From assembly GCA_964016885.1 (NCBI GenBank), contig OZ024741.1, forward strand, positions 224,626,001 to 224,690,000: DNA of 64,000 nt. Direction: 5' to 3'. The notes beneath the pieces are model-generated. The model saw only the letters and a program-made list of their open reading frames with translations. It was not told the origin of the DNA and did no database searches. This stretch comes from Eledone cirrhosa (Eukaryota). How positions within the stretch are numbered: the first letter of the stretch is position 1; each line of letters opens with the position of its first letter. Both the position numbers and the translations under genes were made by a program. Positions 36,098-38,333 of this stretch are shown piece after piece.

Positions 36098-36101
<4 letters not shown>

Positions 36102-38333
36102 ATGAAGTTCATCTATCCTCAATATAACTTTGTTTTATTGCATATCTTTCTTTTCTTACAAATATTATTGTTATATTTCTTCAAGACTAATTACTGTTTT
36201 TATATTCTAGACATTGAATAAAAGCTTGGAATTGGAGCTTTAGTTTTGCAATATTAGAACGCACAACAATTTTATTCAATATGATATTTGTTACAACTGT
36301 TTCGTTCCGAGACTAGACGTTTTGTGGTATTCGTTTCCACCCTTACTCTACCTTCAAAGCTTGCTACATTCTCAATACCAATGGCTCAATTAAAAATTCC
36401 ACATCCAACATTCCCAAATGACCCCACATCCGAGCAATGGCGATGGTGGCGGAAGTGTTTTGTGGATTCCCTACTCATAAACGGCATAGTAGAGGACAAC
36501 CATAAATTGACCTACCTTCGTTCACAAGCTGGGGCCGACCTATTTAGTTTACTCGAATCTGCAGAAAACTTCAACGAAGCACTAATCACCCTGGATACTC
36601 AATTCTTAGCCCCCAGTCGTATACTCTATGCCAGACATCAACTCCTAACATGCCGCCAAAAGCAAGAAGAAACCGTCCGAGAGTTTATTAAAAGACTCAA
36701 CCTTTTAGTGGAAAAATGTAACTGTAAAGCCATCACAGCTAAAGACCATAGAGATATGTTGATCCTGGATTCACTAGTAGCAGGAGTCCAATCAGACGCT
36801 ATACGAGCACGTCTCCTAGAGCTAGACGATACTCAAGCAAACCTAAAAGACTGCATAGCAATGGCAAATGCAATAGAACTATCTAGTGATTTTACTAAAT
36901 CATTCAACCTAGATGTCTCTCTGAATTCATCAACACTGTCAACTACATCCTCTCAAGAACCTACCGTAGCAGCTACACAATCAAAACAACTTCTTCTGAA
37001 ATACTTGAAAAATGCTAATTCCCAAAGTGAATTTAAATGCTTTTTTTGTGGACTTTCTAGGCATCCTAGAAATAAATGCCCAGCTAGAAAAGACATATGC
37101 TATTCTTGTGGGAAGATCGGCCACTGGCAATCAGTCTGTAAATCTGATTGCCAAAGCAGTAAGCAAGCAGCCTCACTTATATGTTCATTAAATACCGGCA
37201 AACAGTCTAAAGCTATTCTCTGCCCGATAACTATAAAAGACACCACACTAAAGGCCTTAATCGATCCTGGTTCCACAGATTCGTTTATACGTCATAGCAT
37301 AGCAACTGAATTAAACTTGAGCGTAAAACAAGAAAAACGGGCAATCACACTAGCCGACAATAAAATATTAATGACGACTGGTACTACATCCATACCAATA
37401 TGTATCTACAGCGAGGAATACTCTGTGAACCTAATCACTGCAAAAAGTCTTGTCGCAGACGTCATTATCGGAATGGATGTCCTCACCCAGCATAGCTCTA
37501 TTATTCTCCACCTTGGCGGTGCCCGGCCTCCCATGAAATTTTCAAATCAACTATGTTGTACCTTTCCGACAATAGGAGTTAATCCGCCTCTTGTCTTCCA
37601 CGATTTAGCCGAGACAAATATCAAGCCGATTGCCACTAAGGGACGTTTCATTAACAAGAGAGACGACAATTTTATTAAGTCCGAAATAACTCGCCTCCTA
37701 GAAGCCGGTATCATTGAGGAATCAATTTCACCTTGGCGAGCTCAGTGCTTCATAGTACACGGAAAGAAACCTCGACTCGTGGTAGACTACTCACAGACAA
37801 TTAATAAGTATACACAATTGGATGCCTATCCATCCCCCGACATTGAGGATGTTGTTAACAAAGTGGCACAGGATAAATATTTTTCAGAATTCGACCTCAA
37901 ATCAGCGTATCACCAAGTACCTTTAAGAAAAATCGACAAACCTCTAACGGCATTTCAGGCTAATCACAAACTCTACCAATTCTGCCGCTTACCCTTCGGC
38001 GTGACTAACGCTGTACCCGTTTTTCAGAGAATTATGGATCAAGTTATAGAGAAATATAACTTACTCAAAACCTATGCCTATATTGACAACGTCATAGTCA
38101 CGGGAAATACCAAAGCTGAACATGATAGAAATGTGGAAGCATTCTTAAACGCCGTGAAGACAGAAAACCTAACTCTTAACTCGGATAAGAGTAAAATCTG
38201 CCAAACGAGTATATCTATACTAGGTTATAACATTCAGAACGGAGTAAAGAAAACCGATAAGGAACGCATCAAAACCCTACTAGACTTCCCAATCCCAACA
38301 AACAAACAACAACTGAAACGATTCATTTGTTGA
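36098..38333 (+). mobile_element. Ty3/Gypsy LTR retrotransposon (Mag-like), 5' LTR + gag-protease-RT, truncated before RNase H
   Basis: 171-bp LTR TGTT...AACA at 36098-36268 containing AATAAA. The ORF (ATG 36381) has CFFCG..H....CPA....CYSCGKIGHWQSVC knuckles, protease ALIDPGST, and RT motifs SPWRAQ, RLVVDY, DLKSAYHQ, LPFG, YIDN, ILGY. No RNase H, integrase or second LTR seen. Confidence 0.93.

Follow-up and report, generated by a model that had tools for sequence, protein, structure and literature searches.

Our data indicate that a Ty3/gypsy LTR retrotransposon of Eledone cirrhosa very probably primes its reverse transcription with a 13-base arm of its own RNA and without a tRNA. Host exons found in a number of its copies, fused where the primer-binding site (PBS) ends, probably arose by splicing onto this arm. 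The pairing between arm and PBS is real and clade-wide. Taken together, a self-primed gypsy element whose exon tags derive from a primer made up of exon plus arm is the best explanation of the sequences compared, and we put its probability at roughly 80%. Experiments have shown self-priming for the fission yeast element Tf1; it is regarded as a hallmark of the Tf1/sushi chromoviruses, and further cases are predicted in plants.

The window, a 64,000-nucleotide stretch of contig OZ024741.1, carries on its plus strand the front 2.2 kb of the element (Table 1), surrounded by a TA microsatellite; this copy ends at 38327 and has no 3' LTR. The LTR ends were set from further copies that carry both LTRs between 5-bp target duplications; these bear out the LTR end at 36268 proposed in a first-pass annotation of the window. 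In the genome search for the family, which gave 41 matches among the 40 scored of 76 candidates, full copies measured about 4.07 kb, with 0 to 4 differences between their paired LTRs and exact 5-bp target duplications in 10 of 11. The family is young and of low copy number. In the window copy, the LTR has a GC content of 26%, and a leader of 112 nt separates it from the coding frame. Comparison with Rfam returned nothing at gathering score. Elsewhere in the window, positions 40117 to 40430 form a long inverted repeat with a hairpin center near 40200 and TA repeats on either side.

Table 1. Features of the element copy in the window
Feature	Position	Strand	Basis or remark
5' LTR, 171 bp, TG...ACA	36098..36268	+	LTR-only matches stop at query base 171; two-LTR copies
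ACTAATT, resembling a branch point, some 20 nt ahead of the AG	36186..36192	+	Sequence
Pyrimidine tract and AG (putative 3' splice acceptor, AG at 36209-36210)	36196..36210	+	Score rank; tagged copies join here
Candidate self-primer arm, 13 nt	36211..36223	+	11 paired in window copy (C at 36212)
AATAAA poly(A) signal within arm	36217..36222	+	Sequence
AAGCT/AGCTT small hairpin at and past the inferred cut (after 36223)	36221..36241	+	Predicted fold
Primer-binding site, one base past LTR, complementary to arm, no TGG	36270..36282	+	Sequence
gag-protease-RT part of single gag-pol frame	36381..38327	+	Two CCHC knuckles, SPWRAQ; copy breaks off at 38327

Directly behind the LTR, a single A (36269) is followed by TTTTATTCAAT at 36270-36280, whose complementary partner, ATTGAATAAAA, lies inside the LTR at 36213-36223. 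The partner stands where it had been reported; the 11-nt complement is likewise present, but one base to the left of the 36271-36281 originally assigned to it. That the window copy pairs over 11 nt is due to a private substitution at 36212, where it has C and all 29 other listed loci of the family have T, and the family pairs over 13 nt (36211-36223 with 36270-36282). The Tf1 self-primer also pairs over 11 nt; the proposed match to this length thus holds for the window copy but is an accident of that copy. Arm and PBS are separated by a loop of 46 nt. The AAGCT/AGCTT hairpin, described before at 36222-36240, is present and in the predicted fold takes up the last three A of the arm; the fold energies, with z scores from -0.5 to -1.95, are by themselves weak evidence. 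At two different loci (L021 and L022), the 5' LTRs share an identical 14-bp loss across this hairpin, possibly at a slippage hot spot, and the 3' LTR of the L022 locus (L156) keeps the hairpin. In another family copy (L138:2792-2931, oriented), the 5' LTR ends about four bases past the inferred cut and joins internal base 900, so that U5, the PBS and most of gag are missing.

A match of at least 11 nt occurred in only 7 of 5,000 dinucleotide shuffles of the LTR (p 0.0016). The low GC content of the LTR and the weak fold scores would suit a chance match in AT-rich DNA, or a quasi-palindrome corrected at the DNA level. Against this stand the shuffle result for the window copy, the fixed geometry and covariation in 21 families and, in one exon-tagged copy, a spliced intron that demands an RNA step and refutes such an origin unless the loci are artifacts; we regard its probability as next to negligible.

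The first-pass annotation was also right that no TGG follows the LTR end, the first being at 36325. A TGG near the LTR end is expected of tRNA-primed elements, and the control families described below carry such sites. The best match of the PBS to a host tRNA is 6 nt, in a comparison that covered just 19 tRNA-like genes of five amino acids, and, to our knowledge, mature tRNAs never end in AAAA, which likewise speaks against a tRNA. The restricted scope of this comparison leaves some room for a PBS that binds a host tRNA fragment or another small RNA, its match to the LTR being secondary. A loose common shape of the arm, with G ten bases from its end in 18 of 21 families and AAA closing it (commonly followed by R-C-C-T), would fit such a primer, and half-tRNA primers exist in copia lineages, as described in sections of PMC6317226. 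The PBS nevertheless varies by family and tracks each family's own LTR, and a small RNA would leave the exon tags unexplained, which makes this reading highly improbable.

The pairing was followed into related elements. A search with the reverse transcriptase (RT) gave 454 long proteins with E<=1e-40. Those listed, 120 in number, have the form of compact polyproteins, mostly of about 1,200 amino acids, nearly all with an SPWRAQ-type motif, and the named ones among them come from insects, an isopod, Trichuris and Ciona. The set used for the PBS test comprised 80 metagenome loci from animal hosts, 39 of them with a gag start and sufficient upstream DNA, together with two families of the E. cirrhosa genome. 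All 18 rows whose LTR ends were set by an LTR pair showed pairing at p<=0.007 (300 shuffles), in most of them with a one-base gap past the CA. None of 11 control copies, which represent about three other gypsy families of the same genome and were taken from 20 fetched loci, paired (p 0.15 to 0.99); they have TGG-type sites instead. The control test misplaced the LTR end of L171 and L172, both of which have GTGGTGAC sites by eye, and its window of 130 nt missed a 9-nt self-pairing in the chromovirus locus L177, whose arm falls outside.

The pairing score averaged 14.2 within families versus 6.9 for 90 cross-family swaps. Counted as sequence clusters, 21 of 25 families pair, so that the covariation between arm and PBS named in the first-pass annotation as a check has been found; the pairing was not significant in L107, L119 (where it is seen by eye only), L126 and L130. 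Positions 1 to 12 are Watson-Crick pairs in 20 to 21 of the 21 families, and as many as four kinds of pair occur at one position; positions 4 to 13, 15 and 16 exceed row shuffles (p<=0.002), and chance level is reached at position 17. A compensatory change is seen even within one family (L072 versus L071). The families are related and are not independent trials, and the shuffle p values therefore overstate the case.

Several further traits of these families concern the surroundings of the arm. Past its end, C stands at +2 in 19, C at +3 in 16 and T at +4 in 17 of the 21 families. In 13 of 21 (L059, L067, L079, L112, L122 and others), there is an AG at a distance of exactly 11 bases from the end of the arm, often as TTAGT or TCAGT, which we take to resemble the invertebrate initiator; the pairing nevertheless extends to 12 to 16 bases. 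The gag ATG begins about 0 to 12 bases past the PBS in many families (L137, L063, L071, L079 and others), which would place the primer duplex over the region of the start codon. L107 has an arm-like stretch upstream of gag and an LTR end followed by ATGGCG, with the complementary PBS missing, and represents either a deletion or a tRNA-type exception.

The position of the poly(A) signal bears on what the pairing is for. AATAAA lies within the arm in the window copy, and AATAAA or ATTAAA closes it in roughly half of these 21 families, as would be expected if pairing just hid the signal of the 5' LTR and prevented early polyadenylation while another RNA acted as primer. However, several families pair fully with no hexamer in the arm, the element would be left without a primer site, and neither the fixed one-base gap past the CA nor the fusion of antisense host exons to the exact end of the PBS would be explained. 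We therefore consider it very unlikely as the function of the pairing; hiding of the signal is likely a side effect.

The copies tagged with host exons provide a record of the primer itself. A pattern search found 31 LTR-end/PBS sites of the window family in the genome. At 22 of them, one being a second PBS inside a rearranged copy, the element goes on normally with G. The other nine (eight events, owing to two tandem duplicates) depart from the element exactly at 36282, with C as the next base. Among the tagged copies, four have exact target duplications, a fifth has a duplication with a one-base mismatch, another is embedded in a TA repeat, and for two the DNA examined contains no 3' LTR. 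Read as RNA, all eight foreign pieces end in G before the arm, seven of them in AG. Sources were sought for four of the eight. Three were traced, each to antisense host sequence that stops at a host GT donor, and the genome search found no source for the fourth (L037). The piece in L035 consists of two host exons from contig C5, 125 kb apart and joined exactly at canonical sites; on the host sense strand each has AG before and GT behind it, and the last ends AAAG|GTAGGT. The sources of the pieces in L036 (92% alike, ending AAAG|GTAGGT) and L154 (97% alike, a repeat family, ending GTAG|GTAAGT) stop in the same manner. Comparable events, two in 21 sites, occur in a second family of the same genome and fall at that family's own acceptor.

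Viewed from the opposite strand, a tagged copy presents exon, 13-base arm and antisense U5 in order, which, on this reading of the sequence, is what a primer RNA attached to minus-strand strong-stop DNA would look like. The spliced intron in the L035 tag requires an RNA step. Since the genomic antisense strand has no AG before the exon joint, the joint cannot be the splicing of an antisense transcript, and since a tRNA primer cannot carry host exons, the tags argue for a self-primer. Contigs from four public runs of one study cross both the exon-exon and the PBS-exon joint of L035, with fewer than 31 letters on one side, which is below the bridging limit; one public run has a loose end at 36282 that begins with C. 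The captured exons (G000:C5:91188957-91313780) have no long open frame and belong to an unannotated noncoding or 5' untranslated transcript with a 125-kb intron.

Directly before the arm lies a putative 3' splice acceptor, preceded by a branch-point-like ACTAATT. By an ad hoc score, its AG is joint first of the 225 AG sites in the element, and the counterpart in the second family ranks 2 of 201; the distance from acceptor to arm end differs between these two families. The transcription start near 36213 expected by the first-pass annotation found no support, as the pairing begins at 36211, immediately behind this acceptor. A start at 36209, considered on account of the C and T past the PBS, was dropped when tracing showed these bases to be the terminal AG of the exon, and an intron inside the LTR was ruled out, the U3 of either family having no GTRAG donor. 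The acceptor is not clade-wide: the pairing extends over the AG in the majority of the other families, and a YAG is missing at this place in several. Within the window family, the exon tags together with an acceptor directly before the arm suggest that host exons were likely spliced onto it.

The main rival to splicing implies self-priming as well. The RT would copy a self-primer of 13 to 15 nt to its 5' end and then jump onto the free 3' ends of packaged host exons, namely, splicing intermediates with a terminal AG; should the RNA start at A36209, a CT overhang would help. The C and T past the PBS do also match LTR bases 36210 and 36209. No mother copy lies near the C5 exons: the 200 kb downstream of the captured exon contain no element copy and that contig has none of the 31 PBS sites, so that a cis-spliced mother locus was not found. 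Jumps of the RT evidently occur, since several tagged copies continue into inverted element pieces, and template switching to mRNA is known (described in part of PMC5131818). Jumping does not predict, however, that a branch point, a pyrimidine tract and an AG stand exactly at the joint in both families of the genome, and all three traced pieces stop exactly at donors. Although we judge this alternative to be rather improbable, the missing mother copy means that the exons may have been acquired by any of three routes: cis-splicing from a copy that is lost or polymorphic, trans-splicing, or jumps of the RT onto free exons.

Considering these data, we propose a model for priming and exon capture in which splicing supplies the tags. 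By analogy with Tf1, the arm would fold onto the PBS, and the RNA would be cut after A36223, a site deduced from the start of the PBS, probably by the element's own RNase H. The arm would then prime minus-strand DNA, remain attached and be copied at the end of plus-strand strong-stop DNA, as in Tf1. Where the acceptor has received a host exon by splicing, as the tagged copies suggest, the primer would consist of exon(s) plus arm; plus-strand synthesis would pass through the arm into the exon and miss the normal second strand transfer, after which the RT would jump back onto the element and integrase would insert the chimera with a normal 5-bp duplication. Inverted element segments follow the foreign piece in L040, L154, L250 and L251, as they should if plus-strand synthesis had proceeded on element RNA before it returned. 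The RNA of normal copies may start near 36209-36211, or may be spliced and then lose its flap. As a side effect of the pairing, the poly(A) signal in the arm would be hidden in the 5' LTR. A bolder version, which we offer as doubtful, is that U3, instead of depending on its own promoter alone, ends in a splice acceptor that receives host transcripts by cis- or trans-splicing, so that the spliceosome would set the 5' side of the self-primer and self-priming would double as a route by which exons are written backwards into new copies in about a quarter of insertions.

With respect to classification, the SPWRAQ elements form one clade at 100/100 in trees of both RT-RH and RT-RH-IN (LG+G4 model). 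The RT-RH-IN tree places this clade with a Mag-like group versus the CsRN1-like, chromovirus and errantivirus-like rows (97/94), as a sister to one Mag-like group and not within it, in a data set without the named elements Mag, SURL and Cer4 and with long branches for both the SPWRAQ and the Mag-like stem; the labels Mag-like, CsRN1-like and errantivirus-like are our own assumption from motifs. A union of SPWRAQ elements with chromoviruses, which were represented by two loci (L177 and L178) without Tf1 and sushi, is rejected by the AU test on RT-RH-IN (p 0.032) but not on RT-RH alone (p 0.26), which leaves the deep placement undecided. The RT phylogeny proposed in the first-pass annotation thus puts the clade outside the chromoviruses on the longer alignment, while the shorter one does not settle the matter. 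A chromodomain and a Tf2-type SH3 module, both of which were found in L177 and L178, are absent from all 20 full-length relatives scanned; the family copy compared with L177 and L178 lacked about its last 75 residues. A chromodomain is usual, though not universal, in Tf1/sushi chromoviruses. Viral contigs yielded no SPWRAQ relatives; they gave two chromoviruses, three loci that we presume to be errantivirus-like and one that we presume to be caulimovirus-like. In its working, the SPWRAQ clade resembles Tf1, yet it does not belong to the Tf1/sushi group, and the earlier suggestion of self-priming outside that group is supported by the covariation across families and by the exon-tagged copies.

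The label Mag-like, given to the element in the first-pass annotation, fits the double CCHC knuckle and the side of the RT-RH-IN tree, both shared with the Mag lineage (A, B and C clades), but not the separate long branch of the SPWRAQ clade, and the characters of Cigr-1 fit better. Cigr-1 has two CCHC knuckles, an integrase after RNase H, a lost GPY/F and neither chromodomain nor env (GyDB and PMC2774666 supplement 3, each as far as excerpted), and the same row of characters is found here, the loss of GPY/F being judged by eye on six C termini. The excerpts place Cigr-1 in Ciona, molluscs and annelids (GyDB; PMC2774666 supplement 3; PMC6238403), and the SPWRAQ clade includes a Ciona intestinalis member (P0065); in Octopus bimaculoides, Cigr-1 is described in a section of PMC6238403 as the third gypsy clade, low in copy number, next to CsRN1 and Mag AB. 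These sources name no primer type for Cigr-1. GyDB gives TANG for the protease flap of Cigr-1, and the flap motifs counted in the 120 listed relatives do not include it. The SPWRAQ/WRAQ motif did not appear in the supplements searched, a scope that excluded three files of PMC8556966 and one of PMC6238403. Matched by character description, the clade is rather likely to be Cigr-1. Unlike this clade, a family of the same genome that we assume to be Mag-like (L157-L165 and L174) has a TGG-type site, eight bases past the LTR, and no self-pairing. That family is abundant, and its RT-RH is about 88% identical to gastropod proteins (Batillaria, Nucella), which may reflect horizontal transfer.

Self-priming is described, in the parts of the sources available to us, for Tf1 and Tf2 of Schizosaccharomyces pombe, Tj1, Tosmo1-3 and the Tf1/sushi group (PMC10085805, PMC4600332, PMC11042837), and is placed there in Tf1/sushi, Tcn1 and TAR copia elements (PMC6317226, PMC10085805, PMC4600332, PMC3601003). 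Like the Tf1/sushi elements, ours has no tRNA site, a PBS just past the CA that pairs with its own R region and extra helices inside the loop, and it apparently keeps the primer and copies it into the plus strand. Tf1 keeps its primer too, a copy of which is carried by about half of its cDNA according to a passage of PMC11042837. The differences are an RT clade of its own without chromodomain or Tf2-type SH3 module, 12 to 16 paired bases, a 171-bp LTR, a 46-nt loop, a poly(A) signal in the arm, and an acceptor at the arm start through which host exons may be carried in. Of the three-duplex "pretzel" of Tf1, the predicted folds give the central duplex, with a single hairpin past the arm, and the two flanking duplexes were not found consistently.

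For the plant chromovirus Tcn1 and the TAR copia elements, Houba and Osr-1 among them, self-priming has likewise been inferred from complementarity between PBS and LTR, and the TAR case indicates that it can arise outside Tf1/sushi; these are plant lineages, however, TAR belongs to copia, and exon tags do not figure as evidence in the relevant sections (PMC6317226). In LTR-mediated retroposition, as excerpted from PMC5131818, spliced host sequence is similarly captured between LTRs and integrated, with joints anywhere that microsimilarity allows. Here, in contrast, one joint is fixed at the PBS end, and the captured host sequence lies in antisense and stops at a splice donor.

We found no paper on self-priming in a nonchromoviral animal gypsy clade, although Repbase and GyDB, which lay outside the search, may remark on it, and the literature searched held no report of exon-tagged primers. 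Whether hairpin or tRNA priming came first is treated as an open question in a section of PMC3601003. A widespread nonchromoviral clade of animal gypsy elements carries the self-priming signature, which implies that self-priming either originated independently there or is much older. The exon-tagged copies are a genomic record of primer identity that goes beyond complementarity, and reading them needs the genome sequence alone, so that the same test is applicable to any suspected self-priming family. They also show a way of capturing exons in which the joint is fixed and the orientation antisense, and they predict that copies within introns would give rise to gene-trap transcripts.
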